From: an uncultured Pseudomonadota bacterium
GTDB lineage: Bacteria > Pseudomonadota > Alphaproteobacteria > Rs-D84
DNA: 64,000 nucleotides
NCBI GenBank assembly: GCA_900321105.1
Contig: OOHL01000003.1
Coordinates: 17,516-81,515 of the forward strand
Direction of reading: 5' to 3'
The position numbers were made by a program, and so were the translations under genes. The notes beneath the pieces are model-generated. The model was not told the origin of the DNA, ran no database searches, and saw only the letters and a list, made by a program, of their open reading frames with translations. Shown here in pieces: positions 1-22,355 of the stretch; within the stretch, counting starts at the first letter, position 1; every line of letters starts with the position of its first letter.

Positions 1-1249
1 GCGTGTCACCGCATGTACCGATGAATTCAAAGCCTGTATCCAAGACGATGAAAGATGCGGCGAAGATTATTCAAAATGTATTGGATTGGATGAAAATGAT
101 ATTGCTGAACTTTGTCCTGATGATAAATTAACAGCATGTTATCATGAATATGACGGTAAAAAAGAAACAGTACGTGAAACATTGGCAAATGTTGCGAACG
201 GCATAATGTTACAGATTCATTCTGGTTTGGCAGATGCGTGCGAGAACGCAGTCAAAGAAGCGATGATAAAAACATGTGGTAATGCCGAAAATTGTAATGA
301 TTTAATAGTCGGTGACAAGGTTGGATCAAGAAGTTTGGAATTAAAGTTCTGTGAAGTTAATGATGCAAATAATATGTATGCGAATTGCAAAACAGATATC
401 AAAGAAATTATGGATAAAGAATTGGGTAAAACAATTCGTAATGCCGATTTATCAAAAACTAAAAATGACAGACATATTTATACAGGTCTGATATTGGGCG
501 ACATATTATGGAATCAAATAACCCCGTTGCCAGATTATTCCGGTGTTATTTCTGGGGATGAATATATAGAAAAAGTGAAAGACATCGTTTATATGGATGA
601 TAAAACCAAAGACAAAGTTAAAACAGAAGTCGGAGCAATAACAAATATGATAAAAAGCACTATTGCCACCGTAGAGACGGATCCGCGTGTACAATTTTGT
701 ATGACTGGTCGTCAGGTCGCAGGTCTTACTGGCGATGGTGGTTTACAACAATATATTGGCAAAGAAAATAATGCAACCTTTCCAAATATTACACAAAGTG
801 CACGTGTCGCAATTGTTAATGGTGCATTACTTGCCGCACAAAAATATTACAATAACAAATATGATGAATTGATTCAGAAAGCAATTGATGCAAATGCACA
901 ACTTCGCGCGCGTTATGCAGAAATTGATGATGCTAATTTCCATCTTGATGTTCAAGACAGCGCCCGTCAAAAATGTATGGCATTGGGTGAACGCGCTGCA
1001 TTTTCTGACAAGGTCAGTGGTCGTGGCGCCAAAAATGAAATTGTCCGTTCAGGTGGCAAAGATGATAAGTTTGTCGGTTATTCCACAGAATCTACATATA
1101 ATTTCAAACGTCAAGTCACTACAACTTTCAGTATGGATAAAATGATTTGCACAAAATGTGTGCGAACCCAAGAATGCTTTATAACAAAAAGAGATTACTG
1201 TAAAGAATGGGATGAAGAAGAAGAAACCTGTGAAGAGATAAAATATTAA
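1..1249 (+). CDS. C-terminal part of a cysteine-rich secreted protein of the paralogous family; the 5' end lies upstream of the window
   Basis: The frame is open from position 2 with no stop before the listed 86 start. The translation ...ACTDEFKACIQDDERCGEDYSKCIGLDENDIAELCPDDKLTAC aligns with CTKEIKECMQSGDRCGSDYSQCIGLDTNIIMRMCPYDKLPGC of ORF 1252-4002 and the equivalent in ORF 19857-22355. It shares the QFCMTGRQVAG motif and a Cys-rich C-terminus ending CEEIKY. Confidence 0.75.
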   Translation, partial: RVTACTDEFKACIQDDERCGEDYSKCIGLDENDIAELCPDDKLTACYHEYDGKKETVRETLANVANGIMLQIHSGLADACENAVKEAMIKTCGNAENCNDLIVGDKVGSRSLELKFCEVNDANNMYANCKTDIKEIMDKELGKTIRNADLSKTKNDRHIYTGLILGDILWNQITPLPDYSGVISGDEYIEKVKDIVYMDDKTKDKVKTEVGAITNMIKSTIATVETDPRVQFCMTGRQVAGLTGDGGLQQYIGKENNATFPNITQSARVAIVNGALLAAQKYYNNKYDELIQKAIDANAQLRARYAEIDDANFHLDVQDSARQKCMALGERAAFSDKVSGRGAKNEIVRSGGKDDKFVGYSTESTYNFKRQVTTTFSMDKMICTKCVRTQECFITKRDYCKEWDEEEETCEEIKY

Positions 1250-1251
1250 AA

Positions 1252-4002
1252 ATGAAATTGTTTTTGAAAATCTTTATCGCGATTGTTTTGATGGGTAATG
1301 TTTATCCAGCGTTTTCTGCGCGTTCTACTGTTGCGAAACAAAGTGTTGTAAGTATGGGAACAAAAATAGAAGAATCGAAAGCAACACAATCTTCACCTTG
1401 TCAGGAAAAATATGATGCATGTATGGATGCCGGTTGTATTATTGATAATGACAGTGGTGGTCGTTGTCAATGCAGTAATCAAATCAAAGATTTAAATGCA
1501 CAATTAAAACAAATTGAAAAAGATTTTAAAAAGACTGTCGATTTATCTAATGATACACTGGACAGAATCAGTGCCGGTGATATGGTAAATGAAGCATTTG
1601 ATAAATCTGGATTCAATGATGATGACGAAGACGATGAAGATTTGGAAACAGCAAGTGATTCAATCGGTGATAAATTACGCAGTGAAATGCATCAAATATG
1701 TGCTGAAAAAATCCCAGAATGTAAATCGCAATTAACACTGATTAAAAATATGTATGCGCAAAAGGTTAAATCTGATTGTGCTGCATTTGAAAACGCATTA
1801 AAACAACGTGGACGTGAAGGTCGTGCAACGTTGGCAGCGGCGGAAAAAAATGTGCGTGATGCGGCGCTTGATAAATATCAAAATGATAATAAATATGATT
1901 TGGGTCAATGCACATTAGAATTCACAAAATGTATGCAAACAACCGCAGAATGTGGAAGTGATTTCACGGGTTGTGTTTCGACTGTCGGTAAAGAAAGTAT
2001 TTATGGCGGTGTCAAAAATACTGTCGCGATACAGGGGGAAAACTCTTCTATTATAATTGCAAAATCAACAATGGAGATGTTGGAATCTAAAAAAATAATC
2101 TGCGATTCTGTATTGAATAATTGTAAAAAAGTTAAAGATGATGTTTGGGATGCGTTCCTTAAAAACGCTGCACCACAAATTAAATTGGCAGAATCAAAAT
2201 CAGAATCAAATATTCGCACATCTTGTTTGAATAATATTTCGGATTGTTTTGTGAACGCGTGTAAAGATACAATTGACGGAAATGATTCTTATGATGCGTG
2301 TTTAAGTCGTCCGGAAATGGTAAAATCTTTCTGTCGTGTTGAATTGGAACCGTGTTTGGCCGCAACCGGTGGGACATACGATAATCCAGAAAGTTCGACT
2401 TTGTGGCCAAGTATATTGGCAAAATTATCTGCGATGCGTGTTGATTCTTGTACCAAAGAAATCAAAGAATGTATGCAAAGCGGTGACAGATGTGGTTCTG
2501 ATTATTCACAATGTATCGGATTGGATACAAATATAATTATGCGTATGTGTCCGTATGATAAATTACCCGGATGTCAAAAGGTTTATGGCAAAGAACGGGT
2601 GCAGGGTGATGATATTTATGACGAAGTCGCCCAGATTATCGAAGGCACAATATTGAATATTGATAATGAAATGTTGGCAACGTGTGAAACGGCTGTGGAT
2701 AACGCGATGTCAAAGGTTTGCGGTGATACAGAAAGTTGTGCGGCATATGCATTGGGAACAAAAATCGGTGCACAATCTTTGGAATATCGTGTATGTCAAT
2801 ATTCGACAGATTCCCCAGATTCAACCAAGGGATTCAAATGGTTTGATTGTCGTCCGGACATTGAAAGTATTTCAGATTATGAATTGGGACGTAATAAAAA
2901 TGCCACATCGGAAGAATTGGGTTATGTTGCGCCATTTGCCGGTGTTATAACTGGTGTTATTAAATGGGAAAGTGTTGAAATTACAGATGACGGTATGATT
3001 GATGTCGATGCATATGTCGCCGCATTGGATAATGAAAAAGACATTGATATTACCGACCGTGACAAAGAATTAGTTCGTGACGAATTAAATCAATTACAAA
3101 ACGATATCAATCGTGTTATTAAACAGGTAGAAAGCGATAACTTTGTTCAATATTGTATAACCGGACGTCAGGTTCAGGGTGTCACAGATATGTTCAAAGA
3201 TAACAAAGTCCGTTTTCCAAAATTATCAAACACAATACGTAAGAACATAGCCAATGCCGCCCTGCAACAGGCCAAAGATAATTATTATCGTAAATACGAT
3301 AAATTGGCGGAACAAATGCAAACCGATATGGCCGCTATAAATGTCAGATTACATGAAAATCTTAAACTTAATGGTGAAGATGCTAAAAGAATTGCTGCTA
3401 GGGCAGCATGTGTTAATATTGCTTCTATAGCTGTTTTTTCTAAAGCCCCCGTTGGTCAATCATTATGGGCAAAGATTGTTATTGGAATAATAGTTGTTGC
3501 GGCAATAGTTGTGGCAACAGTATTTACGGCCGGTGCAGCAACAGGTGCTATTGCTGGTATTGCTGCTTTTTCTACAACTACTACTCTTACAACTACTGTT
3601 ACAACTTCGTTAGGCGTAATGACGTTAACCGCAACAGTTCCAACGCTTACAGGGGTAGGCAGTGTTATCGTTGCTGCCACAGCTGGGGCTGCTGCTGTGG
3701 CTGGGGTTGCGGGGGCGGCCGCCACTGCTGCACAAGCAGCGGAAGCAGAAAGACAAAATGCTGCATTTATTGATTCGCAACAAAAAAAGCAAGCAGAAAC
3801 ACATGGTGAAAATTTCTTTAGAGAATGGAATTATATGGAAAAAATTACAACCGATTTCGATGATAAAACAATGGTTTGTAAAAAATGTATTTCAAAACGT
3901 TATTGTGAACAAACAAAATGGTCCTTGTTTACCGACAGAACATGCAAAAAATGGGAAACCGACGATTTTGTCGATGAACGTTGCACCGATGTTCAATTTT
4001 AA
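1252..4002 (+). CDS. Cysteine-rich secreted/surface protein, paralogous family member (916 aa)
   Basis: N-terminal signal peptide (MKLFLKIFIAIVLMGNVYPAFSA). Carries the conserved C..KYDACMD..C...GG.C.CS motif, an acidic patch (NDDDEDDEDLE) and the CxSDFxGC, VWDAFL, CLSRPEMVKSFC, DRCGSDYSQCIGLD and QYCITGRQVQG motifs. Has a 90-aa Gly/Ala/Thr/Val hydrophobic low-complexity segment and a C-terminal CKKC..C..C..C terminus. It starts 2 bp after the preceding paralog's stop. Confidence 0.8.
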   Translation: MKLFLKIFIAIVLMGNVYPAFSARSTVAKQSVVSMGTKIEESKATQSSPCQEKYDACMDAGCIIDNDSGGRCQCSNQIKDLNAQLKQIEKDFKKTVDLSNDTLDRISAGDMVNEAFDKSGFNDDDEDDEDLETASDSIGDKLRSEMHQICAEKIPECKSQLTLIKNMYAQKVKSDCAAFENALKQRGREGRATLAAAEKNVRDAALDKYQNDNKYDLGQCTLEFTKCMQTTAECGSDFTGCVSTVGKESIYGGVKNTVAIQGENSSIIIAKSTMEMLESKKIICDSVLNNCKKVKDDVWDAFLKNAAPQIKLAESKSESNIRTSCLNNISDCFVNACKDTIDGNDSYDACLSRPEMVKSFCRVELEPCLAATGGTYDNPESSTLWPSILAKLSAMRVDSCTKEIKECMQSGDRCGSDYSQCIGLDTNIIMRMCPYDKLPGCQKVYGKERVQGDDIYDEVAQIIEGTILNIDNEMLATCETAVDNAMSKVCGDTESCAAYALGTKIGAQSLEYRVCQYSTDSPDSTKGFKWFDCRPDIESISDYELGRNKNATSEELGYVAPFAGVITGVIKWESVEITDDGMIDVDAYVAALDNEKDIDITDRDKELVRDELNQLQNDINRVIKQVESDNFVQYCITGRQVQGVTDMFKDNKVRFPKLSNTIRKNIANAALQQAKDNYYRKYDKLAEQMQTDMAAINVRLHENLKLNGEDAKRIAARAACVNIASIAVFSKAPVGQSLWAKIVIGIIVVAAIVVATVFTAGAATGAIAGIAAFSTTTTLTTTVTTSLGVMTLTATVPTLTGVGSVIVAATAGAAAVAGVAGAAATAAQAAEAERQNAAFIDSQQKKQAETHGENFFREWNYMEKITTDFDDKTMVCKKCISKRYCEQTKWSLFTDRTCKKWETDDFVDERCTDVQF

Positions 4003-4971
4003 TTAATCTAATTCATCCAATGATTTGATTACACGAACACCCATGTTTTCAAATTTGTTAATGGTGTCTTCGATGTCCATGATGTTTTGTGATTGCAGAT
4101 AAAGGACCGGTATCAAACCATTTTGTTTGCCCAGGTCAATTAAATCGTTTATTGGTGAATCAATTTGTTTGCCAGCTGCAAACCATGTGTTATTATCCAT
4201 TACCCAGAAATCACCATCGTTATGTTCGTATATAACATATTTTTCAGTTGCCACAAATTCTTTATATGTTTCGAATTCTATGTTTTTTGATGCAAAATAT
4301 TTTGTGGTGTTGTTTTCCAATGGTTTTTCTTCGGGTTCGTCATCAAAATTTATGTCTGTGAATGTTGGAATTTTTATGTTTTCTGAATCGCTTTCATCCA
4401 AAGATTCCGATATATCAAAATCTGTCGGTATATTAAATGTGTTTTCTATATCGGTGTTTTCAGATTTATCATTTTTTTCTGTGGTTGGTTTTGTGTTTTG
4501 TTTGTTATATACAGAAACAACCCCCATTAACGACATATTATTTTTTGCGCGCATATATGGAACACGCAATTCGGGCGGCATATCAGACGGATATTCAGGT
4601 TGAAGTGGTTCTTCTGATTTTTCTTCAACGATTGGTTCGGTTGGTTTTTCCACTTCTTTTTTCTTTGGTAAATATTTTGATATGAATTCAACGATTTTAT
4701 CAACAAAAGGTATCGCAATTACCAATTCTTTTTTGCGATAAATTGTTGCGGTTGTCGCAATGTATATTGGAATTGCAGTATATATCAACAACCCAAACAC
4801 AAAGCCGCCAAAACCATGCAATGTAGAATGAAAAAATTTCCACCAATAATGTGCGTTGAACATATCGAATTTAAATACAAATCGCAATATTAACCACAAT
4901 ACAAAAAAATACCAGAATGTCCATTTGGCAATAATTATGTTTGATTTAATAAATTCAATAATCTTTTTCAT
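4003..4971 (-). CDS. Hypothetical membrane protein with 2-3 N-terminal TM helices and an acidic, low-complexity C-terminal half
   Basis: 322-aa ORF with strongly hydrophobic N-terminal segments (WTFWYFFVLWLILRFVF, GFGGFVFGLLIYTAIPIYIATTA) and a D/E/S/N-rich region. No recognisable catalytic motif. Confidence 0.5.
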   Translation of the reverse strand: MKKIIEFIKSNIIIAKWTFWYFFVLWLILRFVFKFDMFNAHYWWKFFHSTLHGFGGFVFGLLIYTAIPIYIATTATIYRKKELVIAIPFVDKIVEFISKYLPKKKEVEKPTEPIVEEKSEEPLQPEYPSDMPPELRVPYMRAKNNMSLMGVVSVYNKQNTKPTTEKNDKSENTDIENTFNIPTDFDISESLDESDSENIKIPTFTDINFDDEPEEKPLENNTTKYFASKNIEFETYKEFVATEKYVIYEHNDGDFWVMDNNTWFAAGKQIDSPINDLIDLGKQNGLIPVLYLQSQNIMDIEDTINKFENMGVRVIKSLDELD

Positions 4972-5069
4972 ATTACTATTATAGACAATATAAACAATTT
5001 GTCAATATTTTTAAAACAAATATTATTTTGCATATTTTTTAAAAAAAACTTTTTTTAGGGGTCTCTGTA

Positions 5070-5078
5070 TGATATAAT
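5070..5078 (+). promoter_or_regulatory. Candidate extended -10 promoter element (TGaTATAAT) upstream of ORF 5107
   Basis: TGATATAAT lies 29 bp upstream of the ATG, followed by a GGGGGA Shine-Dalgarno at 5095-5100. The -35 is weak. Confidence 0.35.
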
Positions 5079-5106
5079 ATGTTCATAAGAATTTGGGGGA
5101 AATACT

Positions 5107-7254
5107 ATGAAAATGTTGAATTTATTTGGGAAATCAATGGTCAGTGTTGCTGTTTTGGCAACGTGTTGTGGCGCAAATGCTGCACAAAACGGTCGTGTCA
5201 GTATGATGCCGGCGGTTGATTCTGCATCAAGTGCACGTATGCCAACAATGCCGGTTGTATCTTTGAACACTATCGGAAATCCGGCGGTTCAAACAATAAG
5301 CCAACCGGTCGAGGCTACATATAATCACGAAGTTATGCCAACACCTCCGACACCACCAACCCCGGACCCAAAACCAATATCTGAATGTCCAGATGGTGGC
5401 GTGAAAAATTCAACATATACTATTTCCATGTGTATGAATGACGTCTTGCAATGCGTTAATACCGGCGCACTTCAAGGTGGTTTGAACGATTTGTTCAACG
5501 AAGATGTGCGTAATTCAATTATGGGTGGCATGAAATTATGTCAGGCTTCGGTTGATAAATGTATTTCCGACGTTCGTGTAAACTGCCGTAATGTTTATGC
5601 TGAAAGCAACGATGTGTGGCTTGATTTCAATTCCAGAATTGTTCAACCAGAATATTATAACTTTGTTTTACGTAAAACAGGTTTGACACCAAATCAGGCT
5701 GAAAATACATGCTTGTTATTGGATCGCAATACATATGGTTCATCGTTCTCTGCGGTGTCTGATACAAATGTTGTAAATACTGAATATAACAACAAGGTCG
5801 GTGCATATAACGAAGCTAACGGTGGAATTCTTTCCAAAGATAATCCACAAGGTGTCGCGGTTAATACTGTTGGATACGATGGAAATCGTGGCCATTATGC
5901 ACGTTGGGATGCGGCAAAGGCTGAATGTTTGATTCGTGTTGCGGCATATAACAAAGATAAATTGATTACAAACAGTTGGTTGTTCGGTGCCGTTGGTAAT
6001 GATAACCCGGCAGAAGTTTGGGAAAAAGCAGGTTCAACATTTACATGCAGCAAAGAATTGTTTGATTTCGATTCATTGTTGAATGATACAAAGACCGCTG
6101 CTGTTATCGCGGTTCCAGGTGGTGCTGTGTTGGGTACTGCAATTGGTGCAGCCGCCGGGGCAGGTGCTTATAAAAAGAAAGCTGCTGCTGCCGAAGAATT
6201 ATTAGATTCTTCTTATGAAGATCCTTGTACGGCTGGTGATGATCAGGGCAAACGGTATCGTCAAATATTGGGTTCAGCCATCAGGGGCAAAGAGTATTCG
6301 TTACAGGGATATCTTTGTGAAAATGTGAAGGCTAACGAAGAAAAACAAAATGTTGAATGTAAAAGTTATGATACAATCGATTCATATAATATAAGCGTAA
6401 AGCAATGTAAAGACATACATAATTTGTTTGCCAAGGCTGAATTATACAGAGCGGCGCATAAGGCATGTCAGGACAGGGTATCACCAGAAATGATTTCGCG
6501 TGTGGTTGGCAATGTTTGTGTCGAAGGTGAATATTCTTGTAAAGATGCCAGTGGTAACATCATTACAGCTGAAAATATGAAAAACAACCAGAGCTATGAT
6601 TTATATCAACAATACATAGAATATAAAAACAATTGTTCATTTAAACCGTTGTTAATGTTATTTTCGTTACAAGACCAAGATCCTTTGTGCAAAACAAACA
6701 AAGACTGTGTCTCTTATGAATACAGCAAGAAAGAATTGGTAGAATTAGACAATTTCCTGGCTGGTATAGAAAGCGTTGTTGATAAAAACGCCTTGAAAGT
6801 TGCAAAACAAATCAAAGAAAATGAAAAGTTAAGCAAAGGCAAAGAAATCGGCAAGGGTGCAGCGATTGGTTTGGCAACTGGTGCCGCCGCCGGTGGTGTT
6901 GCAACAGCAATCACAGCATTTGTAGAACGCAGCAACATTACATGTAAAGTTGGTGATGGTCTGAATTCTGTTGCATTGGGCAAGGCGCACACTATCGATT
7001 CCTTGAAAGATTTCTATGTGAAATGGAATCTGCATTTGCCAGATACAGTATCGCCAACATCTGCAGTTTCTACAAAGGCAGATTGGGAACAAGCATGCAG
7101 CCAATTCAATAACAAATTGACAGATTGTCCAAAGGTTCAAATTAACCTGAAAGACACAAATGGTAAATATACATTGGTACCATCTGCATGTAAAGTTTCT
7201 GGAAATGTTTGTATCGTAAATGATTCAGTTATGACATCAAACGGTATACAATAA
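5107..7254 (+). CDS. Secreted cysteine-rich protein of a distinct type from the main family, with a Pro/Thr linker and two Gly/Ala zipper segments
   Basis: Signal peptide (MKMLNLFGKSMVSVAVLATCCGANA). Has a PTPPTPPTPDPKP linker and about 30 Cys. Two hydrophobic G/A-rich segments are present (TAAVIAVPGGAVLGTAIGAAAGAGA and GAAIGLATGAAAGGVATAITAFV). A hairpin terminator follows. Confidence 0.7.
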   Translation: MKMLNLFGKSMVSVAVLATCCGANAAQNGRVSMMPAVDSASSARMPTMPVVSLNTIGNPAVQTISQPVEATYNHEVMPTPPTPPTPDPKPISECPDGGVKNSTYTISMCMNDVLQCVNTGALQGGLNDLFNEDVRNSIMGGMKLCQASVDKCISDVRVNCRNVYAESNDVWLDFNSRIVQPEYYNFVLRKTGLTPNQAENTCLLLDRNTYGSSFSAVSDTNVVNTEYNNKVGAYNEANGGILSKDNPQGVAVNTVGYDGNRGHYARWDAAKAECLIRVAAYNKDKLITNSWLFGAVGNDNPAEVWEKAGSTFTCSKELFDFDSLLNDTKTAAVIAVPGGAVLGTAIGAAAGAGAYKKKAAAAEELLDSSYEDPCTAGDDQGKRYRQILGSAIRGKEYSLQGYLCENVKANEEKQNVECKSYDTIDSYNISVKQCKDIHNLFAKAELYRAAHKACQDRVSPEMISRVVGNVCVEGEYSCKDASGNIITAENMKNNQSYDLYQQYIEYKNNCSFKPLLMLFSLQDQDPLCKTNKDCVSYEYSKKELVELDNFLAGIESVVDKNALKVAKQIKENEKLSKGKEIGKGAAIGLATGAAAGGVATAITAFVERSNITCKVGDGLNSVALGKAHTIDSLKDFYVKWNLHLPDTVSPTSAVSTKADWEQACSQFNNKLTDCPKVQINLKDTNGKYTLVPSACKVSGNVCIVNDSVMTSNGIQ

Positions 7255-7277
7255 GAAACAATATAACAAATTAAAAA

Positions 7278-7305
7278 GAACACCGACATTGTCGGTGTTT
7301 TTTTG
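7278..7305 (+). terminator. Rho-independent terminator after ORF 5107-7254
   Basis: The hairpin aacaccgacattgtcggtgtt is followed by a T-run. Confidence 0.7.
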
Positions 7306-7335
7306 TTTAACAAACAAGAAGAATTGAAACTGTTT

Positions 7336-8436
7336 TTATGCGGCCTTCTTCATACCTTGTTTTATATCGCGAACATATTTACGCAATTCATCAATTGGAA
7401 CCAATGTGCCATCTTTCTTTTGTGCTGACCAATAATCCCAACCATTAAAACTGACACTGTGTTGTATGCGTGCCGCCATAACATGTATGGATGCCTTGCC
7501 ATATAATGTATGCATCAATTGGCCATCGTGTGTAATCATAACGCGGTCGCCACGTGGTCCAACCAACGTTTGGCCGACATATAATAAGCCACTATCAATC
7601 AATTCGCGGAAATTAACCTTGATTGCATCGCGTTTTGGCGCGGATACTTCAATATCTGACAAATCGATTGGTGTAATTTTCTCAACACGTTCACGCGCCG
7701 CATTGACATATGTTTCTTCGCGATCAATACCGATAAATTGACGGCCTAATTCTTTTGCAGCCGCCGCAGTTGTTCCGGAACCCACAAAAGGATCCAAGAT
7801 AATATCACCTGGTTTTGTGGATGATAAAATCACGCGGCGCAATAAATCCATCGGCTTTTGTGTATTGTGCAAACTTTTTCCGTTTGCATCCTTTACACGT
7901 TCTTCGCCCAAGCATATATTTATATCCCAATCAGAACGCATCTGTTTTCCGCCGTTCAATTTTTTCATCGTTTCATAATTGAAAGTATATTTACCTGTTT
8001 TTGTCGGTGTTGCCCATATCAATGTTTCATGTGCGTTTGTAAATCGTGTCCCACGAAAATTAGGCATAGGATTTGTCTTTACCCAAACAATATCATTTAA
8101 AATCCAAAATCCCATATCTTGCAAAATAGAACCCACGCGGAATATGTTGTGATATGAACCAACAACCCACATTGCACCGGTTGGTTTTAAAATTCTTTTA
8201 CATTCACGCATCCAATCGCGTGTAAATTCATCATATTTTTCGTTAGATTCAAATGTATCCCAACTGTCACGAACTGCACGTGCAGCCGTTTGATCTTCGG
8301 GACGATAAAGCGTTTTTTCCCCCAGTTGTAAATTATACGGTGAATCTGCAAAAATTGCATCAACGGATGCATCAGGAATCTTGCGCATTATATCTATACA
8401 ATCACCGCACAAAATTTTGTTAAGGTATTTTTGCAT
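7336..8436 (-). CDS. ccrM: CcrM-type beta-class N6-adenine DNA methyltransferase, an orphan with no adjacent restriction enzyme
   Basis: N-terminal FADSPYN (DPPY-type motif IV) precedes LDPFVGSGTT (motif I). At 366 aa it includes the C-terminal extension typical of CcrM. Confidence 0.75.
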   Translation of the reverse strand: MQKYLNKILCGDCIDIMRKIPDASVDAIFADSPYNLQLGEKTLYRPEDQTAARAVRDSWDTFESNEKYDEFTRDWMRECKRILKPTGAMWVVGSYHNIFRVGSILQDMGFWILNDIVWVKTNPMPNFRGTRFTNAHETLIWATPTKTGKYTFNYETMKKLNGGKQMRSDWDINICLGEERVKDANGKSLHNTQKPMDLLRRVILSSTKPGDIILDPFVGSGTTAAAAKELGRQFIGIDREETYVNAARERVEKITPIDLSDIEVSAPKRDAIKVNFRELIDSGLLYVGQTLVGPRGDRVMITHDGQLMHTLYGKASIHVMAARIQHSVSFNGWDYWSAQKKDGTLVPIDELRKYVRDIKQGMKKAA

Positions 8437-8610
8437 TTTCTCTCGTTCCCCTGGGCTTTGTGTCCCGTTTGTTTATAGATATTTTATCATATTTTAGGGT
8501 TATAAAAAAGCCTCCATCGAATCGGTTTTGAAAAAAAACACTTGATTTTTATAAAAAAGCAATTTTTTTATGCTTTACTTATCAATGAATTTTTTCTAAT
8601 CTTAAAGATT

Positions 8611-13573: not shown

Positions 13574-13600
13574 TTTGTTTTTAATTCAAGGTTTATAAAA

Positions 13601-14863
13601 ATGAACGACGATAAAACAACAAATACACCCGAAAAAGCGCAACAGTTTTGCAGTTTCTGTGGAAAATCTGTGTATGAAGTGAAAAAATTGGTCAGTGGCA
13701 AAGATGTCTGCATTTGTGATGAATGTATCAATCTGTGTAATGATATTATGGCAGATGATAAAAAATCACAAATTAAACACGAATCTTCATCGTTGCCAAC
13801 ACCATCTGAAATTTATAAATTCTTGAATGAATATGTTATTGGTCAAGACAATGCAAAAAGAACATTGGCTGTGGCGGTATATAATCATTATAAACGTAAC
13901 AGTGCCGCGGTTGCTTCCAATGTAGAAATACAGAAATCCAATATTTTGATGATTGGTTCGACTGGTACTGGTAAAACTTTGTTTGCACAAACTTTGGCAC
14001 GTGTATTAGATGTGCCATTTGCGATTGCCGATGCGACAACTTTAACCGAAGCCGGTTATGTTGGTGATGACGTTGAATCTGTGTTAACACGTTTGTTGCA
14101 AAATGCTAATTTTGATGTTGAGCGCGCACAACGCGGAATTATTTATATCGATGAAATAGATAAAATTTCGCGCAAATCTGAAAACCCTTCATTGACACGC
14201 GATGTGTCTGGCGAAGGTGTTCAACAGGCTTTGTTAAAATTAATTGAAGGAACCGTTGCAAATGTTCCAGCTGGTGGGGCGGGGCGCAAACATCCTGGCG
14301 AAGCGACCGTTCAATTAGATACCAGCAAGATTTTATTTATATGTGGTGGTGCATTTGATGGTTTGAACAAAATCATTGCTGCGCGTTCTGCAGGTCGTGC
14401 TGGAATTGGTTTTGGTGCAAATGTTTCTGATAAAAAAGAACGTGAAGAAAAAGATTATTTAATTGACGTTCAATCAAGTGATTTAGTTCGCTTTGGCATT
14501 ATTCCAGAACTGATTGGTCGTTTACCAATCATCACAACTTTGCAACCTTTGGATGAAAAAGCATTGGTAAAGATTTTAACAGAACCAAAGAATGCAATTG
14601 TTAAACAATATGCGGCAATGTTGGAAATGGATGGAATAAAGTTAAATATCACCAAAGATGGTTTGACTGCTATTGCTAAAATGGCAATAGAAAGAAAAAC
14701 TGGTGCACGTGGTTTGCGTTCAATATTGGAAAAGATTTTATTAAAGCCCATGTTTGATGCACCTGATAAAAAAGATTTACAAGAAATCGTAATAGATGCA
14801 GATGTAGTAAACGGTAAAAAAGAACCAATGGAAATTTACGCAGAAACTAAAAAAGTCGCTTAA
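13601..14863 (+). CDS. clpX: ATP-dependent Clp protease ATP-binding subunit ClpX
   Basis: Zinc finger CSFCGK...CICDEC. Walker A GSTGTGKT. Confidence 0.95.
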
Positions 14864-14871
14864 TACACAAT

Positions 14872-14906
14872 AAAAAAAACGATAAAATATTTATCGTTTT
14901 TTTTTA
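14872..14906. terminator. Bidirectional hairpin terminator between clpX (+) and ORF 14904-17222 (-)
   Basis: The hairpin aacgataaaatatttatcgtt is flanked by an A-run and a T-run. Confidence 0.65.
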
Positions 14907-17222
14907 TGGTTTACAATATCCCCATAATGCACTGGAACCTGTTTTAATGTAAAAGCTGTTCAATAAATAATCACCAGTAGAATCATGAATACCATCACTG
15001 TTTTTATCTGTCCATGGAATATCAACCCATGTCCCAGATTGGTCAGAACATTCTTGTGATAAAGACAAAACCAGTTGTGTGCGAACCTTTTGCATAACTT
15101 TATCAATATCAGATAACAAAGATTCTGATACTGTATAACTTGTCTTTGACGGTCGACGACAATTCTGAAGCGCATATCTTACAAGTTGTTGATACAAAGA
15201 ACCAATGTAAGACGTCCCACATGTCATATATATATCAGAAGATGATTGCACGGGGGCTAGTTTGCCGCCATAACAAGTATAAGTTTTTGGACATTGTTTG
15301 CATTCCGTTGCACCAGTTGTTGCAAAATAAACTCCTGTGTTGTCTTCATCTGTTTCATCAAACTTATACAAATAATATCCAGGTTTACATTCCTTATATA
15401 TTTTTGTATATCCTATGGAACAATAATCTTGATATGCTGCATGTGAATACGTAGATGTTTGTGCAGTGGTTGTAATCAAAATATCGTTTTGGGAAAAAGG
15501 GTTATATGATGTTTCATTGCATATTTCAACACGTGCATATCGCGATTCCCCTGGAGCATATTTGCGACAACCATAAGGATAAGAATGTGCTGAATCACCA
15601 GTCTGGATAGCACATCTGCTTTCTACAAATGTTGTTAATAAATCATAACACGATTGTTCGATTGTCGCATCTGTGATGCCTGTCATTGCAGCAACTAATG
15701 TTGTAAGACCTTCTTCGCCACCACCATATAAATTACTGCAAGTATTTAATTTATCAGCACACATTTCTTCGGATAATTCCAATGTTTGTCCCAAGTTAAT
15801 TTTTGTATCTGTATCTGAAAAATTTTTTAATTGGTCTGATTGTTTCAGATAACATTCGTTAACAACTTTCAAACATTCATCTTTGACTGTTTTTACTCGT
15901 GCTTGTTGTCCTTGGTATATTTCGACAATTGCTTGTCGTAAGAATTCGTCCCATACATCTTCGGCATCATCACGACATAAATCCAGACTTTTTGATGCAA
16001 AATTACGTTTTTTGTTAAGCATACTTATAAATGATGTGTTTTGGCTGTTTTTTAAAACATCACCTGATAACGATAATTGGTTTTCAATCTGATAAAATTC
16101 AGGCGAATATATTGGTTGTCCAGTTGATATATTCAAATATTTACCAGAAAAATCTAAACAGTGAATATATCCATTTCCACAGGCTGAATCTGCCGTTATA
16201 TCTTTACGAACATTTGCAATACAATCATTTATGCTGGACGAATTGTGTGCATTATAATTTTCGAGACGCGCATCTTGCATTTTATGACGTGTTGATCGTA
16301 TTGATGCATTTGCATTGGTGGTTTTTGTTTGCAGATTATTTTCAAGTAAAGAGCAATCATTTTCAACGTACATGCCGTATGCAGATGCAACCATTTTCAA
16401 ATCAGATGATGCACAAGTTTCTGTGACAAGTTCTGAACATTGGGCATGTACCGCATTGAATAAAGCTTCGCCGGTAAGATTTGCAATGTCTGCACCGCCA
16501 ATCAAATTTGTTGTTGACCAAATAGATTTTATATCACCAGCAATGTCTACATTTCCCTTGGTCGATAGCGATTGAGATTTTGTATTACTAAGCACACCAG
16601 AAATATTTTTCAATGTATTTGCGCTTTCAGACGTATCCTTTTTGATCGCAGATTCACCATCTGTAGCGGATAACATCGCTTTTACTTCTTTGGATGTTTT
16701 TGATATCATGTCGATATTTAAATCTTGAAAGTCTTGTAAACTTTCTGCGGTTTGTGATAAAAGCCTTTCTTTGTTTTGTATATCTTTTAATTTTGAAGAA
16801 CAAACACATCGACGGTACGTTTCGTTTTGCGTAGCGCAAAATTGATCCATACATGTAAAATATGCATCGCGACAAGAATTATAATTTGATCCGAAAGTTC
16901 TTGTTTTTACAGTAGCGGCAGCGCGCGCCAATCTTGAAGCTTGTGTTGCAACCGCAGAACGAACAGCTTGGTGATTTTGTGTCGCACTTCGCCCGGTGAC
17001 AATCTTTGTATTTGGTGTACGTGCGGTTGTCTTTCTGGTGGTGACATCTGCAGATGCGTTACGCGATGTTATAGAACGGCTTGTATTGGTATCTGTTTTT
17101 TGTCGTGTTGATGACGATAGGCGTGATGTTGTTGGTGTTGCAGTATTCTGGGTACGCAAAGCAGCATTGACCCCGTCAACGCATAAAAACAGACCAAGCA
17201 AAACAACAAAAACCTTTCTCAT
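14904..17222 (-). CDS. Cysteine-rich secreted protein, divergent member of the paralogous family (772 aa)
   Basis: Signal peptide MRKVFVVLLGLFLCVDGVNA. Has a Thr/Ser/Arg-rich linker. SCRDAYFTCMDQFC......RRCVCSS matches the family N-terminal motif and CRDDAEDVWDEFLRQA matches the VWDxFL motif. About 35 Cys. The C-terminus differs from the other members. Confidence 0.75.
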   Translation of the reverse strand: MRKVFVVLLGLFLCVDGVNAALRTQNTATPTTSRLSSSTRQKTDTNTSRSITSRNASADVTTRKTTARTPNTKIVTGRSATQNHQAVRSAVATQASRLARAAATVKTRTFGSNYNSCRDAYFTCMDQFCATQNETYRRCVCSSKLKDIQNKERLLSQTAESLQDFQDLNIDMISKTSKEVKAMLSATDGESAIKKDTSESANTLKNISGVLSNTKSQSLSTKGNVDIAGDIKSIWSTTNLIGGADIANLTGEALFNAVHAQCSELVTETCASSDLKMVASAYGMYVENDCSLLENNLQTKTTNANASIRSTRHKMQDARLENYNAHNSSSINDCIANVRKDITADSACGNGYIHCLDFSGKYLNISTGQPIYSPEFYQIENQLSLSGDVLKNSQNTSFISMLNKKRNFASKSLDLCRDDAEDVWDEFLRQAIVEIYQGQQARVKTVKDECLKVVNECYLKQSDQLKNFSDTDTKINLGQTLELSEEMCADKLNTCSNLYGGGEEGLTTLVAAMTGITDATIEQSCYDLLTTFVESRCAIQTGDSAHSYPYGCRKYAPGESRYARVEICNETSYNPFSQNDILITTTAQTSTYSHAAYQDYCSIGYTKIYKECKPGYYLYKFDETDEDNTGVYFATTGATECKQCPKTYTCYGGKLAPVQSSSDIYMTCGTSYIGSLYQQLVRYALQNCRRPSKTSYTVSESLLSDIDKVMQKVRTQLVLSLSQECSDQSGTWVDIPWTDKNSDGIHDSTGDYLLNSFYIKTGSSALWGYCKP

Positions 17223-17291
17223 CCTGTACTTTTAAATAATAATAACAAAAATAAGATATTTTAAGCAAGGGTATTTTACAAAATTTTGAAA

Positions 17292-17316
17292 TAAAAAAAA
17301 TCCACAAAAGTGGATT
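17292..17316 (-). terminator. Rho-independent terminator downstream of infA
   Basis: On the minus strand the hairpin atccacttttgtggat is followed by a T8 run. Confidence 0.65.
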
Positions 17317-17323
17317 TGTTTCT

Positions 17324-17578
17324 TTATTGATGATTTGGTGCACCATCTGCGGTTGCATGTGTTCGTTCAACAAATGTTATACGACCTTTGTCTAAATCAT
17401 AAGGTGTCATTTCAACATGTACCTTTTCACCAACATTAACCCAAATGCGAGCCTTGCGCATTTTGCCGCACACGGTTGCCAATATCACATGTCCATTTTC
17501 AAGACGAACACGGAACATAGTGTTTGGTAACCTTTCTTCGACTGTACCTGAAAAAACAATTACATCATCTTTTGCCAT
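17324..17578 (-). CDS. infA: Translation initiation factor IF-1
   Basis: [42 protein letters not shown]... is the canonical S1-like IF-1. The listed 127-aa ORF is an upstream extension. Confidence 0.9.
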
Positions 17579-17651
17579 AAATTTAATCCTTGGTTTTTGA
17601 CCATATAATAATATTAACCATAAAATTAAAAAGCAAGACTTTTTTATATGC

Positions 17652-17680
17652 TTGCAAGGTTTAATATTTTTTGATAAAAT
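17652..17680 (+). promoter_or_regulatory. Candidate sigma-70 promoter (TTGCAA-N17-TAAAAT) for the tandem cysteine-rich genes
   Basis: The hexamers with 17-bp spacing lie about 25 bp upstream of the ATG at 17706. Confidence 0.4.
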
Positions 17681-17705
17681 AACATAAAAATGTAGGAATG
17701 TGCAC

Positions 17706-19838
17706 ATGAAAATATTGAGATTTTTACCAATTTTGTTGGTTTTGCCATCTGTCGTGTATGGGGCTTCACGTGGGGATTCAGAGATGCGTGTTGGTATAGT
17801 GCGTGGATCTCAGGCTGCTTCGCGCATATCTGTCGGGGCCGCGGAAGTAAAAGCTGTACGTGAGTCTGCAGAGAAAATACTGCAATCAAATGAAAAAGAT
17901 GGTTCTAAAAAATTACCATCTATTTCAGGATATGCGACCGAAAGTCCTGCGAGTGATTGTCGTGATGCGTATCGTGAATGTATGGATAATTTTTGTTTGT
18001 TGGACGAAAGCCAGGGTGAACGTTGTGCGTGTTCTGATAATATAGAACGTGCAAAAAGCAAAATTCAGGCTGTTCTTGATATCCAGGCAGAAGCAGACAA
18101 ATTGTATACCGAGGGTGTTGAACGTGAACAACTGGGTGCCAAGGCGCGTTTAGTTTTTGCTGATAACACCAGTACCAAGGTTTCAACTGCGAATTTCATG
18201 GCATGGTTGGGCGCCGGAGAAGAAGATGAAGAAGAAGAAGTTGGCGAAGATGTGACGATGGGTGATGATTTGTACCAAATGGCTGTTAAGTATTGTCAGG
18301 CTGAATTAGATGCTTGTGGCAGTAAGGCCGAAATGGAATCCATGCTTTATACGCGCATGATAACCCAAGATTGTAAAAATTATGATGCATATCTGGCAGA
18401 CCAGAAAGCAAATGCGGAATCCAATAAACGTATCGCAGAATCTGCGGTTCGCAAGGCACGTCTTGAAATGTTAGACACGACAAATAAATATAACCGTGGT
18501 GAATGTTTGTTGGCATATCGTTCATGTATCGCAGACAAGGGTGGTTGTGGTTCTAATTTTGAAAACTGTTTAGATGAAAAATTATTACAACGTCGTTCAA
18601 ATGCCTGTGAAAACGTGTTGGATCAATGTATGGCGGTTCGTGATTATGTTGTTAAAGATTGGGCGGCAGAATCTAAAAGTGTTTTGGCAGAAGCAGCAAA
18701 ATATGCGGATAAATATGAACGTGCAACATGTTTGGCAAAGGTGCAACTTTGTTTGGAAGAAGGGTGTTCAACATCAACAAATGCGGAATGTTTAACAGAT
18801 GTAAATGTCGCTGCTGGTGTATGTCCAATTATTACAGAATGTGACGCAAAGATACCAGGCTTCCAGGCTGTTGTAAACGATAAGTTGGGATATTTGCAAA
18901 CAAAGTTCTGTGAAAATGATGTTGATAAATGTCTGCAAGATAAGTGTGGTGTTGATTTTACGAAACCAGAATGTGTTGGTAAAAAACCGTATGAAATCGC
19001 GGCGCTTTGTCCACAGAGTATGTTCCCTTCTTGTAAGACTGCAACACAATTTGATGTGATTGTTCAGGCTGCAATCTTGCAAATGGATTATCAAATGATG
19101 CAGGGCTGTGTGAATTATTTTGGTGAACAACTGGGCAAGGTTTGTGGTACAGATATGGCGTGTTTACCAATTGATACAACTGTTGAATCTTTAATCAATT
19201 TGCCTGATACCGAAGAAGGTTTGGCAGATTTACGTAAAACGGTTGTTGCAAATTCTGATGCATCGGTCGAAGAATTCTTTAAACAATTTGAACAAGATAA
19301 AACTGTGGCTGCTTGTTCGGATTCTCAAAGTGTTGACGCGTCAAAGAAAGTAAAGGGTAAAAACACATTGGGGGTAAGTGTATTTAATACTGCAAAATTA
19401 TTGGCGAAAATGGCAGCAGAAAATCGTAATTTACGCGAACTTGATTCTAAAATTGCAGAATTGGCACGTAAAAAAGAATTAAAAGAAGCAGAACAAATTT
19501 GTTTGAAAACTTATAAACCTGAAAAACCAGATGATTCTAAAACGAATTACAGTTATATAAAAAGTGTTTCGTTTGAACCACAACTTCGTAATTGTCATGT
19601 TTGCAGATTGCAACAGGTGTGCGAAGAAGGTGGCGAATCAAAAGCATCTGCGGCATTGAAAGCTGCGGCTGGTGGTTTGTCGGCTGGCGCATCGACTGGA
19701 ACAATGATAAATGCCGGATGGGGAACCGCAATTGGTGGTATTATAGGTGCGGTTGGTGCCGGTGCATTAGGTGCGGCATCTGGTGGTAAAAAAGAATTCT
19801 GTCAAGAAATCGAATCTTGCGAAGATATAAATATGTAA
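17706..19838 (+). CDS. Cysteine-rich secreted/surface protein, paralogous family member (about 710 aa)
   Basis: Signal peptide [19 protein letters not shown]. Carries the [14 protein letters not shown]......GERCACSD motif and the acidic patch [12 protein letters not shown]. Also [20 protein letters not shown], a G/A-rich hydrophobic segment [40 protein letters not shown], and a terminus NCHVC...CEDINM. Confidence 0.8.
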
Positions 19839-19856
19839 AACTTTGGAGAAAATAAA

Positions 19857-22355
19857 ATGAAAAAAGTATTGCATTTTGGGTTGGTTTTTGGATTGTTTGC
19901 GGCTTTTGTTGGTGCGACAGATTCTTTCGCTGCGACAAAAAAAAGTTCGTCAAAAAAACAATCTGCGATTCAAGTTGGAACCAAGGTTCGTGCCAAAGTC
20001 GAAGCGACAGGAATTTATGACGAAGAATGTTATAATAAATATTTTGGTTGTATGGATCAATTCTGTATCGCAGATAATGAAAACGGCGGAACATGTATGT
20101 GCAGTGATGATGCCGCAAAATACGATGAACAGCTGGAATCAATCAAAAAAACTTTAGCAGAAGCAGAACGTATAGGTACCGAAGAAGTTGAAAGAATTCA
20201 AGCTGGTGCAAATGCAGACATCATATTCAATGGTGGTGAACGTATTTATAACGATGATGGTTCTATTGTAAAGGCTGGTGAAAAGAAGAAAGATACAATT
20301 ACATGGTCTTCTATATACGATATGGAAGATGATGAAGAATATGATGACGAATGGGCAGATATTGATTTGTCTGACAAAGTCGGCAGGGAATTATACACAT
20401 CTGCACATCAATTATGCCGTGAACAAATGCCAGATTCTTGCAACAAAGATATGACGCTTTTGACGCAAATGTATTCGCGTCAAATCATTTCTGATTGCAA
20501 GGGGTTGGCAAATTCTATTGCACAAAAGAAACAGGAAGCAGATTCTATGTTAGCAAAAGCAAGAGCTGCGGTTCGTGGTGCATTAAAGGAAAGTTTCGAA
20601 GAATCTAATAAATATGATCGTGGAACATGTATGGTTGAATATAAACATTGTATGCAAAGTGCAGATGCTTGCGGTTCTGATTGGAGTAATTGTGTATTTA
20701 CAATAGCATCCGAGAATATGCAAAACAATGAGGCAACCAGTGTTGCTGGAACAAAAGTTAGTACAGTTAACATATATGATATTACAGCATCCACAATGGA
20801 AATATTAGAATCAAAACGTTTTATCTGTGAAAAAGTTTTAGACAGTTGTGTCGCGGTTCGTGACTATGTCTGGAACGATTTCTTGCGTGAAGCAGCACCA
20901 ACAATACGATTGGCAGAACAAAATGTAGAATCACAAAAACGTCAATCTTGTTTGTCTGATATTTCGAATTGTATCCAAAAGGCATGTAAAGATGATATAG
21001 CAGGTAAGGGCGTTGACACAATGGATGCGTGCCTTGCACGTCCAAGTATGGCACGTTCATTCTGCAAGATTCAAATTGAACCATGCGAAAGAATGGAACC
21101 ACAAATTTGGGATTATGTGGTAAGTAAATTGGCGGCAATGCGCGTTGATGCATGTACCGCGGAAGTAAAAGAATGTTTTACATCCGAAGACAGATGTGGC
21201 AAAGATTTTTCAAATTGTATTGGTATGGATTTCAATTATATACACGATATCTGTCCAATTGATAAATTGGTTGTATGTAAACAAGCAAACCCAGATTTCA
21301 AAATGTCAGATTTGGATTCTATGTTGATGGGATTATATTTGAACATAGATAACAAGGCTTTGGAAAATTGTCAAAATCTGGCTGAACAAAAAATGACAGA
21401 ATTATGTGGTTCGACAACTGATTGTAATTCGTTTGCCGCCGATGAATTTATCGGGACCAGTTCCGTTAAATCACAAAAAGACGGAACGACATATCGTGTG
21501 ACCGGTATGATATCTTTCGGTTCAATTAAAATGGGTGATGCCACAGGTTCTGTAACAGATGGTGGACGCGTTTTGGCACCTGGTGAAATCGGGGTCGCTG
21601 ATTATATCAAATCGGTAAAAGCTAAAAATGTAAATGTTCCAAATGCCGAAGCAATAATCACATCTATCGAAGAAGAATTGAATAATATTGCCGGTACAAT
21701 TAACAGGACTGTATCTTTCTTGGAATCAGATCAACAAATATCTTATTGTATCAATGGGCGTGATTTATCACAAATAAACGGCAAGGGTTCAGAAAATAAC
21801 GCAACGGTTGCGCGTTTCCCTAATTTATTGAATCAATATCGTGTTATGATTGGTATGGCCGCTTTACGTAAAGCACAAGACAATTATAATAAAAAAGTTA
21901 ATGATGCGATTGCTGATGCAACCAAAAATGCATCCGCAGACGTTGCACAATATATGTGTCAAAAAATTGCAGATTCCAGAACATCACGCAGTTCGGGAAA
22001 TGAAATTGTTGAACAGACACCTTTGACAACGCCGTTCTCTATATCATACGAAGTGGGGGCTGGTTTGAATACGGCGACATTATTAAAGGGTGGGTCTGGC
22101 ACATCAAATAACACAATGGCTGGTAAATTTAAAAACAGTGGTTATCTGGGCGGTTCATCAGCATCTGGTTTAGGTGGTGTTATGAAAGATGTGACGGCAA
22201 CATTTGATCGTGAATCAAGAAATTGTCATGTTTGCACAACATTAACCACACAATCTTGTAAAACAACGGGGTCAACATCTTGGTTCCATAACAGCAGAAA
22301 CCAATCTTGTGAGACTAAGACGGCAGACCCGTATTGTGAAGATATCAAAATGTAA
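19857..22355 (+). CDS. Cysteine-rich secreted/surface protein, paralogous family member (832 aa, about 36 Cys)
   Basis: Signal peptide ending in the typical motif ECYNKYFGCMDQFC......GGTCMCSD. Acidic patch DMEDDEEYDDEWADIDLSD. Has the CGSDWSNC, VRDYVWNDFL, CLARPSMARSFC, DRCGKDFSNCIGMD, ICPIDKL and SYCINGRDLSQ motifs. Terminus NCHVC...SCK...SCE...YCEDIKM. Confidence 0.85.
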   Translation: MKKVLHFGLVFGLFAAFVGATDSFAATKKSSSKKQSAIQVGTKVRAKVEATGIYDEECYNKYFGCMDQFCIADNENGGTCMCSDDAAKYDEQLESIKKTLAEAERIGTEEVERIQAGANADIIFNGGERIYNDDGSIVKAGEKKKDTITWSSIYDMEDDEEYDDEWADIDLSDKVGRELYTSAHQLCREQMPDSCNKDMTLLTQMYSRQIISDCKGLANSIAQKKQEADSMLAKARAAVRGALKESFEESNKYDRGTCMVEYKHCMQSADACGSDWSNCVFTIASENMQNNEATSVAGTKVSTVNIYDITASTMEILESKRFICEKVLDSCVAVRDYVWNDFLREAAPTIRLAEQNVESQKRQSCLSDISNCIQKACKDDIAGKGVDTMDACLARPSMARSFCKIQIEPCERMEPQIWDYVVSKLAAMRVDACTAEVKECFTSEDRCGKDFSNCIGMDFNYIHDICPIDKLVVCKQANPDFKMSDLDSMLMGLYLNIDNKALENCQNLAEQKMTELCGSTTDCNSFAADEFIGTSSVKSQKDGTTYRVTGMISFGSIKMGDATGSVTDGGRVLAPGEIGVADYIKSVKAKNVNVPNAEAIITSIEEELNNIAGTINRTVSFLESDQQISYCINGRDLSQINGKGSENNATVARFPNLLNQYRVMIGMAALRKAQDNYNKKVNDAIADATKNASADVAQYMCQKIADSRTSRSSGNEIVEQTPLTTPFSISYEVGAGLNTATLLKGGSGTSNNTMAGKFKNSGYLGGSSASGLGGVMKDVTATFDRESRNCHVCTTLTTQSCKTTGSTSWFHNSRNQSCETKTADPYCEDIKM

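Follow-up and report, generated by a model that had tools for sequence, protein, structure and literature searches.

What is encoded by the long, cysteine-rich open reading frames (ORFs) that lie among the housekeeping genes of an uncultured gut alphaproteobacterium, and do they form a genuine protein family? The question is raised by a 64,000-nucleotide (nt) stretch, referred to here as the window (contig OOHL01000003.1, positions 17,516 to 81,515 of the forward strand), from the genome of Candidatus Enterousia (Alphaproteobacteria, order Rs-D84). A preliminary description of the window proposed six paralogous ORFs, here named A to F (Table 1). All six exist, and the window does carry a multicopy family of exported, cysteine-rich proteins, as indicated by their homology and signal-like N termini. 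The family is real, sizeable, and lineage restricted, and its proposed membership needs one deletion (C) and one addition (a paralog named Z, located just upstream of the window).

Homology among the window ORFs was analyzed by BLASTP with SEG masking and composition-based statistics. In the all-versus-all comparison that had been suggested, five of the six ORFs are linked under masking, with E values of 2e-117 (B-F), 3e-50 (A-B), 3e-47 (E-F), 4e-28 (B-E), 1e-26 (A-F), 2e-20 (B-D), 7e-18 (D-F), and 2e-8 (D-E), and the alignments are collinear across 330 to 730 residues. Judged by these alignments, A, B, D, E, and F are true homologs. D is the most divergent member: an hhalign comparison of a 92-sequence B-type alignment with a 29-sequence D-type alignment gives a probability of 99.8% (E value of 2e-29 over 334 columns), and the part of D shared with the family spans only about amino acids (aa) 114 to 495 (nt 15738 to 16883), its C-terminal half being unrelated to the other members. 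The explanation that there is no real family, and that the similarity is an artifact of cysteine content or biased composition, holds only for C. For the five in-window members it is already refuted by the E values reaching 1e-117 despite masking and composition correction, the collinearity, the profile-profile probability, and the hundreds of conserved orthologs, and it retains practically no probability.

C, which had been listed as the more distant member, was rejected as a paralog. It has no BLASTP match to the others below an E value of 0.4 and no match to the family hidden Markov model (HMM), and hhalign pairs the family profile with a 38-sequence C-family profile at a probability of only 1.4%. 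Its likeness to the family is limited to composition and general architecture. The cysteine motifs originally described are found literally in B and F, and the first motif in relaxed form is present in all six true members (A, B, D, E, F, and Z) and never in C. C represents a separate conserved family of cysteine-rich exported proteins with 754 matches, the gene for which lies beside or after B-type genes in 53 of the 81 foreign loci used for neighborhood comparison.

Three metagenome contigs (L082 to L084) are 100% identical to the window over an overlap of 8.5 to 17 kb and extend it upstream, where rplQ, paralog Z (family-HMM E value of 3e-159), full-length A, and B follow in this order. The true layout is thus a tandem triple (Z-A-B), an opposite-strand singleton (D), and a tandem pair (E-F). 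Of the arrangement proposed earlier, two tandem pairs and a singleton, the E-F pair and the D singleton stand, and the first pair becomes a triple. The search for further copies yielded this one true paralog and hundreds of relatives in other genomes; a family-HMM search of the ORFs in the remaining 42 kb of the window revealed no additional copy.

The framework of these proteins matches no family in the databases that were searched. No Pfam family scores above the cutoff in the six window proteins (E values up to 1), and none recurs among 47 diverse members (E values up to 0.01). There is no match to an NCBIfam family, and PDB sequence profile searches with the main family and the D family return nothing below an E value of 0.49. 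A Foldseek search of the B model against PDB folds gives no significant match (best E value of 1.3; SmhB at 8.3), and since the predicted template modeling score (pTM) of the model is only 0.45, this fold-level negative is weaker than the sequence-level one. The subcutoff hits to YbgS, Apolipoprotein, Snf7, Dynamin-like_hel_bact, Bacteriocin_IIc, and DUF2664 fall on coiled-coil or low-complexity stretches and were treated as noise. The earlier statement that the framework is not recognizable as a characterized domain is therefore borne out against Pfam, NCBIfam, PDB sequences, and PDB folds. On this evidence the family is undescribed at the sequence and fold levels; its functional class may be a known one.

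In a profile search of 1.84 billion representative proteins, the family comprises 983 representatives (50% identity clusters) at E values of ≤1e-3, 832 at 1e-10, and 316 at 1e-30. All of the named representatives belong to gut Alphaproteobacteria, and the only names on homologs are Candidatus Enterousia and "MAG: Alphaproteobacteria bacterium" (metagenome-assembled genomes [MAGs] from rumen, horse, chicken, and human gut). Across 185,579 species-representative genomes, 462 stretches related to the family were detected, and the 80 of these that were listed carry gut Alphaproteobacteria, Enterousia, or "Rickettsiales" MAG labels, save for two seemingly misbinned contigs. As far as these names and labels reach, the family is restricted to one lineage, Candidatus Enterousia and the wider Rs-D84 order. 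Rs-D84 consists of widespread, uncultured gut Alphaproteobacteria with reported genomes of about 0.75 to 1.0 Mb. These genomes encode no tricarboxylic acid cycle, no respiratory chain, and no standard transporters, and the bacteria have been suggested to depend on a partner (PMC12306168).

Across the 81 foreign loci, the family genes usually occur in tandem, with one to four copies per ~15 kb, and in L081 and L033, the D-type and E-type genes adjoin a B-type gene. The orthologous groups differ in sharpness, with best-to-second bit-score ratios of 7.9 for the D type and 3.2 for the E type, whereas the Z, A, and B types blur in distant genomes (ratios of 1.2 to 1.6) and vary in copy number between lineages. 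The lineage-specific expansion proposed earlier is thus only partly right: it fits the Z-A-B tandem group, and the D and E types, for which clear orthologs exist in distant genomes, are distinct subfamilies of old origin. The picture that these comparisons suggest is one of ancient subfamilies combined with lineage-specific tandem duplication. Recent gene conversion between the tandem copies, another point raised for checking, was rejected, as the copies share no long identical DNA but only motif-coding stretches of 25 to 105 nt with 62% to 80% identity.

The cysteines are the most constant feature of the family. In B, 38 of 38 cysteines are at least 97% conserved among 92 sequences with an average identity of ~40%, and 28 cysteines are invariant across 47 sequences that are 22% to 39% identical to B. 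The mature cysteine count is 38 in 78 of 119 B-type homologs, and the commonest spacing, C-x6-C, equals one heptad. The co-occurrence of the variable cysteines was analyzed in a family-wide alignment of 126 sequences (B numbering). Cysteines 337 and 350 are both present in 107 sequences and both absent in 19, and cysteines 325 and 368 are both present in 121 and both absent in 5, with no discordant sequence for either pair. The pair 515/533 is present in 59 sequences and absent in 65, and the pair 879/911 is present in 33 and absent in 91, with two discordant sequences each. The patterns of the latter two pairs are scattered through the score-ranked alignment rows, and their gain and loss can be read as repeated events. 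In the AlphaFold model, the covarying partners sit on adjacent helices or strands. In addition, C407 and C433 are lost together in Z and C227 and C284 are lost together in D, and the two losses are topologically parallel, involving the second cysteine of a homologous four-cysteine module and one downstream cysteine. Such paired changes favor disulfides over four-ligand metal clusters, and the cysteines probably form disulfides.

An alternative is that the cysteines bind metal, such as zinc or iron, or serve in redox or thiol buffering rather than in structural disulfides. Such roles could be accommodated by a cysteine content of 3.9% to 5.3% in an anaerobe without respiration, by the C-x2-C motif in the C-terminal domain, and by the free thiols that odd cysteine counts would leave in the D-type and C-type proteins. 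However, cysteines appear and disappear strictly two at a time, as neighbors in the sequence and in the model, and not in fours; the motifs contain no His or Asp partners, no metal-binding Pfam family is matched, the proteins are exported, and the B-type counts are even. To our knowledge, C-x6-C is not a known metal-cluster motif either. Metal binding or thiol buffering is accordingly regarded as highly improbable.

The proteins appear to act outside the cytoplasm. A hydrophobicity scan finds a signal-like hydrophobic N terminus, followed by A-x-A-type sites, in all six members, in agreement with the signal peptides noted before, and the same applies to ~88% to 98% of the full-length homologs. 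The mature proteins are acidic (pI 4.7 to 5.9). The signal peptide of D-type proteins contains an invariant cysteine (Cys13) in an L-F-L-C context, a candidate for an atypical lipobox. Z shows a comparable L-S-L-C and, besides, three copies of a motif, ARAGxxQxV, that is related to the N-terminal motif of A and B. The B model (mean predicted local distance difference test [pLDDT] score of 72.8) consists mostly of long helices, including helices of 58 and 74 residues, with a beta-rich part at aa 511 to 567. Conservation in B is highest at aa 280 to 440; variation is greatest in the acidic patch and in the hydrophobic region, the latter being the least conserved and most gap-rich portion of the protein. 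The four-cysteine module of 28 residues occurs twice in B (hhalign internal repeat probability of 94.7%; E value of 6e-8) and is also seen at the DNA level (repeat family D1).

The C-terminal parts differ among the subtypes. Of 118 B-type homologs, 111 have an internal hydrophobic segment of transmembrane length, as do 23 of 113 family representatives; the segment occurs in none of the 120 D-type homologs and is missing from A. The Gly/Ala-rich hydrophobic segments that had been attributed to the C-terminal region at large are therefore found in B (strong) and E (weak) and are not family-wide; in E, a Gly-zipper-like segment is inserted within the C-terminal cysteine motif. Similarly, the terminus C-E-[ED]-I-[KN]-[YM] holds in A, E, and F, and B ends with CTDVQF. 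By the family HMM, the C-terminal cysteine domain of B is homologous to that of A and F. Since A and F are soluble, this domain and the N-terminal part probably share one side of the membrane. The chain would then cross the membrane an even number of times, and a hairpin-type anchoring of B seems likely. Among the 118 B-type homologs, 113 end in Phe. A YadA-type anchor or a signal for the β-barrel assembly machinery (BAM) was considered for the C-terminal domain of B and rejected, as there is no YadA_anchor Pfam match and only the terminal Phe fits. In the model, the C terminus comprises a helix and five strands; with their high charge and their cysteines, these strands could not form a lipid-facing barrel.

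The Gly/Ala-rich segments also lend themselves to a membrane-active function, in which the helical rods would deliver these segments into the membrane of a target or partner cell in a pore-forming or fusion-like manner, with the tandem paralogs cooperating. In multicomponent alpha-helical pore-forming toxins, the components act together; in viral class I fusion proteins, the chain-reversal loop is closed by a C-x6-C disulfide, and retroviral gamma-type Env proteins carry a CX6CC motif. The hydrophobic stretches of B, E, and C, the pairing of one anchored or hydrophobic paralog with soluble ones in each set, and the several C-x6-C pairs that straddle helix breaks in the model recall these systems. 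However, the Foldseek search matched no pore-forming toxin or fusion protein significantly, the majority of members lack a hydrophobic segment, and the segment in B lies in its least conserved region. Genes that are embedded among housekeeping genes and maintained throughout the order, as these are, better suit a core component of the cell. A membrane-active role is thus improbable.

The neighborhood of the family adds two further proteins. The 322-aa membrane protein gene follows B-type genes, lying between the B-type and C-type genes, in 54 of the 81 foreign loci; its product has no match in Pfam, NCBIfam, or PDB. The N-terminal domain of protein C is very conserved, the motifs YARWDA and GLTPxQAENTC being invariant, and the protein also has two Gly-zipper-like hydrophobic segments (aa 330 to 352 and 587 to 605). 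Its AlphaFold model is of low confidence (pLDDT of 62.6) and has no Foldseek fold match, and a PDB sequence profile search with the C family is likewise without a match. In three loci from other Rs-D84 genomes (L026, L017, and L063), a gene for a large protein of ~630 to 780 aa with 30 to 37 cysteines and two Gly-zipper segments comes after the C-type gene, and the proteins of L026 and L017 show BLASTP similarity to the OmpA/Pal-like peptidoglycan-binding protein of the window. By-eye reading of the sequence suggests a CarboxypepD_reg-like N terminus in this large protein.

Taken together, the preferred reading, which we regard as possible rather than probable, is that the family forms a Sec-exported, disulfide-stapled helical scaffold in the cell envelope, anchored by the B-type hairpin, with C and the 322-aa protein associated. 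The large acidic proteins would leave the cytoplasm via the Sec pathway and fold outside it into elongated, mostly alpha-helical rods with ~14 to 19 intramolecular disulfides each, the C-x6-C cysteines being placed on one helix face or across a helix break. The paralogs would then assemble as a multicomponent structural scaffold in the periplasm or at the outer membrane, and the B-type member would tether the scaffold to a membrane by its hydrophobic hairpin, and the two domains that flank the hairpin would lie on the outer side. C and the 322-aa protein, encoded beside B, would be partners. An envelope role is plausible but unproven, being suggested by the signal peptides, the paired cysteines, the hydrophobic anchor of one subtype, and the gene neighborhood; from these we infer the compartment, the assembly of the paralogs, and the structural role. 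The tight tandem units, the arrays in foreign loci, and the conserved arrangement of the B-type gene, the 322-aa gene, and the C-type gene suggest a multicomponent system.

Several points weigh against such a scaffold. The mature cysteine counts are odd in the D type (mostly 31 or 29) and C type (mostly 21), so that some cysteine is free or intermolecular and not all are in intramolecular pairs; these counts are compatible with intermolecular cross-linking, and they are not evidence for it. An anaerobic life without a respiratory chain has been reported for the lineage (PMC12306168), which leaves the oxidation of the disulfides unexplained, and no Dsb-type thioredoxin motif is present in the window plus 84 loci, a small and biased sample of ~1 Mb in which this negative is uninformative. 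The low pTM (0.45) of the B model makes the rod shape and the packing of the domains uncertain. Finally, the fast evolution of the family and its acidic pI suit a surface adhesin equally well.

The rate of evolution is evident from a comparison with the close relative L001. The identity to the L001 ortholog is 42% for Z, 74% for A, 77% for B, and 69% for C, in comparison with 94% for CcrM, 93% for NrdR, 94% for the lytic transglycosylase, and 98% for ClpP, and by these values Z evolves much faster than its tandem partners A and B. A framework that changes quickly around fixed cysteines is the usual mark of extracytoplasmic (scaffold) proteins. It would also fit the main rival reading, in which the proteins are surface-exposed adhesins or partner-interaction fibrils that bind host mucus or partner cells, either bacteria or protists. 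That the family evolves much faster than the neighboring housekeeping genes while keeping its cysteines, occurs in multiple copies whose number differs between lineages, and consists of acidic proteins of predicted elongated helical shape is consistent with adhesins, as are the reduced genome, the lack of standard transporters, and the suggested dependence on a partner (PMC12306168) and the Ephrin_rec_like/TNFR-type cysteine-rich protein encoded nearby in L001. In contrast, the proteins contain no autotransporter or YadA-type anchor domain (Pfam) and hence no attached device for outer membrane translocation, and no dedicated secretion genes are seen in the conserved neighborhood. The B-type hairpin resembles an alpha-helical membrane anchor rather than an outer membrane barrel, and each subtype has stable orthologs instead of hypervariable cassettes. 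Adhesion is considered rather unlikely.

A further variant would make the family, C, and the 322-aa protein a cell-cell contact apparatus that docks on the membrane of another cell and breaches it or fuses with it for metabolites, with the disulfide-locked rods projecting Gly/Ala-rich, fusion-peptide-like segments. This would demand that a strict anaerobe with no respiratory chain has an unrecognized oxidative-folding pathway for ~100 structural disulfides, and it is quite improbable.

The remaining features of the window concern the cell and the surroundings of the family. The neighboring genes include those for CcrM, NrdR, a lytic transglycosylase, RNase HII, Pgk, ClpP, ClpX, and IF-1. The infA ORF is listed as 127 aa, and its IF-1 match covers only residues 46 to 112; the true start is probably internal, and the apparent 2-nt overlap with the start of E is then not real. 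An autotransporter, LptB, LptC, and the OmpA/Pal-like protein are encoded in the window, which indicates that the cell has two membranes. The autotransporter also shows that the organism has an outer membrane and a BAM-dependent route for surface display. Pyruvate:ferredoxin oxidoreductase supports an anaerobic metabolism, and a Fic-domain protein is also encoded. The ORF at 35841 to 37808 matches no Pfam domain and bears no relation to the family. The gene for the Ephrin_rec_like protein of L001 lies upstream of rpoA and rplQ, and with it this neighborhood encodes one more exported, cysteine-rich protein of a eukaryote-like type.

Table 1. Features of the cysteine-rich family, its neighborhood, and related loci (coordinates in the window unless a locus is named)
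Feature	Coordinates (nt)	Strand	Description
Paralog Z	L084 431-3484		1017 aa, 41 Cys; just outside the window
Paralog A	2-1249	+	Partial, C-terminal 415 aa (18 Cys) of an 848-aa, 40-Cys protein (full length from identical contigs), cut by window edge; ends CEEIKY
Paralog B	1252-4002	+	916 aa, 38 Cys; start 2 nt past A stop codon; putative membrane-anchored subtype
B signal peptide	1252-1317	+	aa 1-22, ...PAFS/ARS; probable signal-peptidase-I type (hydrophobicity scan and direct sequence reading)
B mature-start motif ARxxVAKQxVVxxGTK(I/V)	1318-1371	+	Directly after the signal peptide; ARxxVAKQxVVxxGTKV in A and B
B first cysteine motif C-x6-CMD-x2-C-x9-C-x-CS	1399-1476	+	In all six true members
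B four-cysteine module, copy 1	1900-1983	+	aa 217-244; C-x6-C-x6-CG-x-D-[FY]-x2-C
B four-cysteine module, copy 2	2440-2523	+	aa 397-424; inside most conserved part of the protein
B hydrophobic Gly/Ala/Thr-rich region	3445-3726	+	aa 732-825; at least 2 transmembrane-length segments; low AlphaFold confidence; putative membrane hairpin
B C-terminal beta domain	3802-3999	+	aa 851-916; 5 Cys, five strands, pLDDT 85-89
322-aa membrane protein	4003-4971	-	N-terminal transmembrane helices, acidic low-complexity linker, C-terminal domain of ~110 aa
Promoter of 322-aa gene	5005-4978	-	Sigma-70-like, 12/12
Protein C	5107-7254	+	715 aa, 26 Cys; separate family
Paralog D	14904-17222	-	772 aa, 30 Cys; no internal hydrophobic segment
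D Cys13	17184-17186	-	Invariant in D-type signal peptide
infA ORF	17324-17707	-	IF-1
Paralog E	17706-19838	+	710 aa, 36 Cys; ends CEDINM
E Gly-zipper-like segment	19722-19784	+	aa 673-693
Paralog F	19857-22355	+	832 aa, 36 Cys; 18 nt past E; soluble type; ends CEDIKM
Terminator-like hairpin	22359-22380	+	9-bp stem, then T run; closes E-F unit
Fic-domain protein	26012-26806	-	
Pyruvate:ferredoxin oxidoreductase	28362-31859	+	
Cysteine-containing ORF	35841-37808	+	655 aa, 20 Cys; signal-like N terminus, eight-fold SQEQQ repeat, long C-terminal coiled coil
Autotransporter	40075-43557	+	1160 aa; Pfam Autotransporter beta-domain, E value of 5e-33
OmpA/Pal-like peptidoglycan-binding protein	59475-60863	+	462 aa
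Large Gly-zipper protein	L026 12294-14627	-	
Large Gly-zipper protein	L017 12382-14676	-	
Large Gly-zipper protein	L063 12729-14621	-	
Ephrin_rec_like/TNFR-like repeat protein	L001 103-2028	+	641 aa, cysteine rich; Pfam E value of 3e-18

The six paralogs and protein C amount to ~17.4 kb of coding sequence, or nearly 2% of such a genome. Since strong genome reduction spares only the genes that are needed, the family is probably core to envelope building or partner contact. If the scaffold reading is true, Enterousia would join Chlamydia as a second, independent example of a bacterium with a reduced genome that relies on a cysteine-rich protein envelope, and the oxidation of so many cysteines in an anaerobe lacking a respiratory chain would call for an explanation. 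Besides, the family provides a clean lineage marker, a new fold family for structural study, and candidate surface antigens or enrichment handles for gut samples.

[quoted passage not shown] The comparison with OmcB was offered as an analogy only, and such it is: there is no sequence or domain similarity, and no OmcB-type Pfam domain (Chlam_OMP6 or DUF11) is matched. OmcB is a beta-rich repeat protein, whereas the Enterousia family is predicted to be mainly alpha-helical, and Enterousia retains rod-shape and peptidoglycan genes. A disulfide-stabilized envelope structure is established for Chlamydia (PMC6752827, PMC13082905) and only proposed for the Enterousia family, and intermolecular cross-linking and developmental redox switching are known for the chlamydial system and not for the Enterousia family.

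The middle repeat region of Helicobacter pylori CagY consists of alpha-helical modules with regular cysteine pairs, which have been modeled as intrachain disulfides joining consecutive helices (PMC10706595). An envelope protein with helical modules and spaced cysteine pairs is also what is predicted for the Enterousia family. However, CagY belongs to a type IV secretion system as its VirB10-type component, and its short tandem repeats have two cysteines each, whereas the Enterousia proteins have no VirB10 domain, lie in no type IV secretion locus, and have no sequence match to CagY, and their framework is collinear and nonrepetitive save for the one 28-aa module that occurs twice. The Helicobacter Hcp proteins are secreted and helical, and fixed, short-spaced cysteine pairs bridge their helix pairs. 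The Enterousia proteins are likewise predicted to be secreted and helical, but they are three to four times larger, their spacing is C-x6-C and not the Hcp pattern, and none of 47 members (0/47) has a Sel1 (PF08238) or TPR Pfam match; in addition, the modeled helices of 58 to 74 residues are unlike the short hairpins of Sel1-like repeats.

The glycine-zipper lipoproteins (SlyB/Pcp, YiaD, and the Rickettsia 17-kDa antigen) resemble B, E, and C in their Gly/Ala-rich, hairpin-like segments, and related genomes pair such segments with similarity to the OmpA/Pal-like peptidoglycan-binding protein. The Pfam matches of this kind are subthreshold (YbgS, E value of 0.003; Bacteriocin_IIc, 0.076; and Gly-zipper_YMGG, 0.022, in one C homolog). 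Moreover, the glycine-zipper lipoproteins are small, whereas the Enterousia proteins are 700 to 1000 aa long with large cysteine-rich domains, and B, E, and C have no conserved lipobox. The chlamydial COMC, CagY, and Hcp may be the nearest functional analogues of the Enterousia family, the likeness being one of possible working and not of ancestry.

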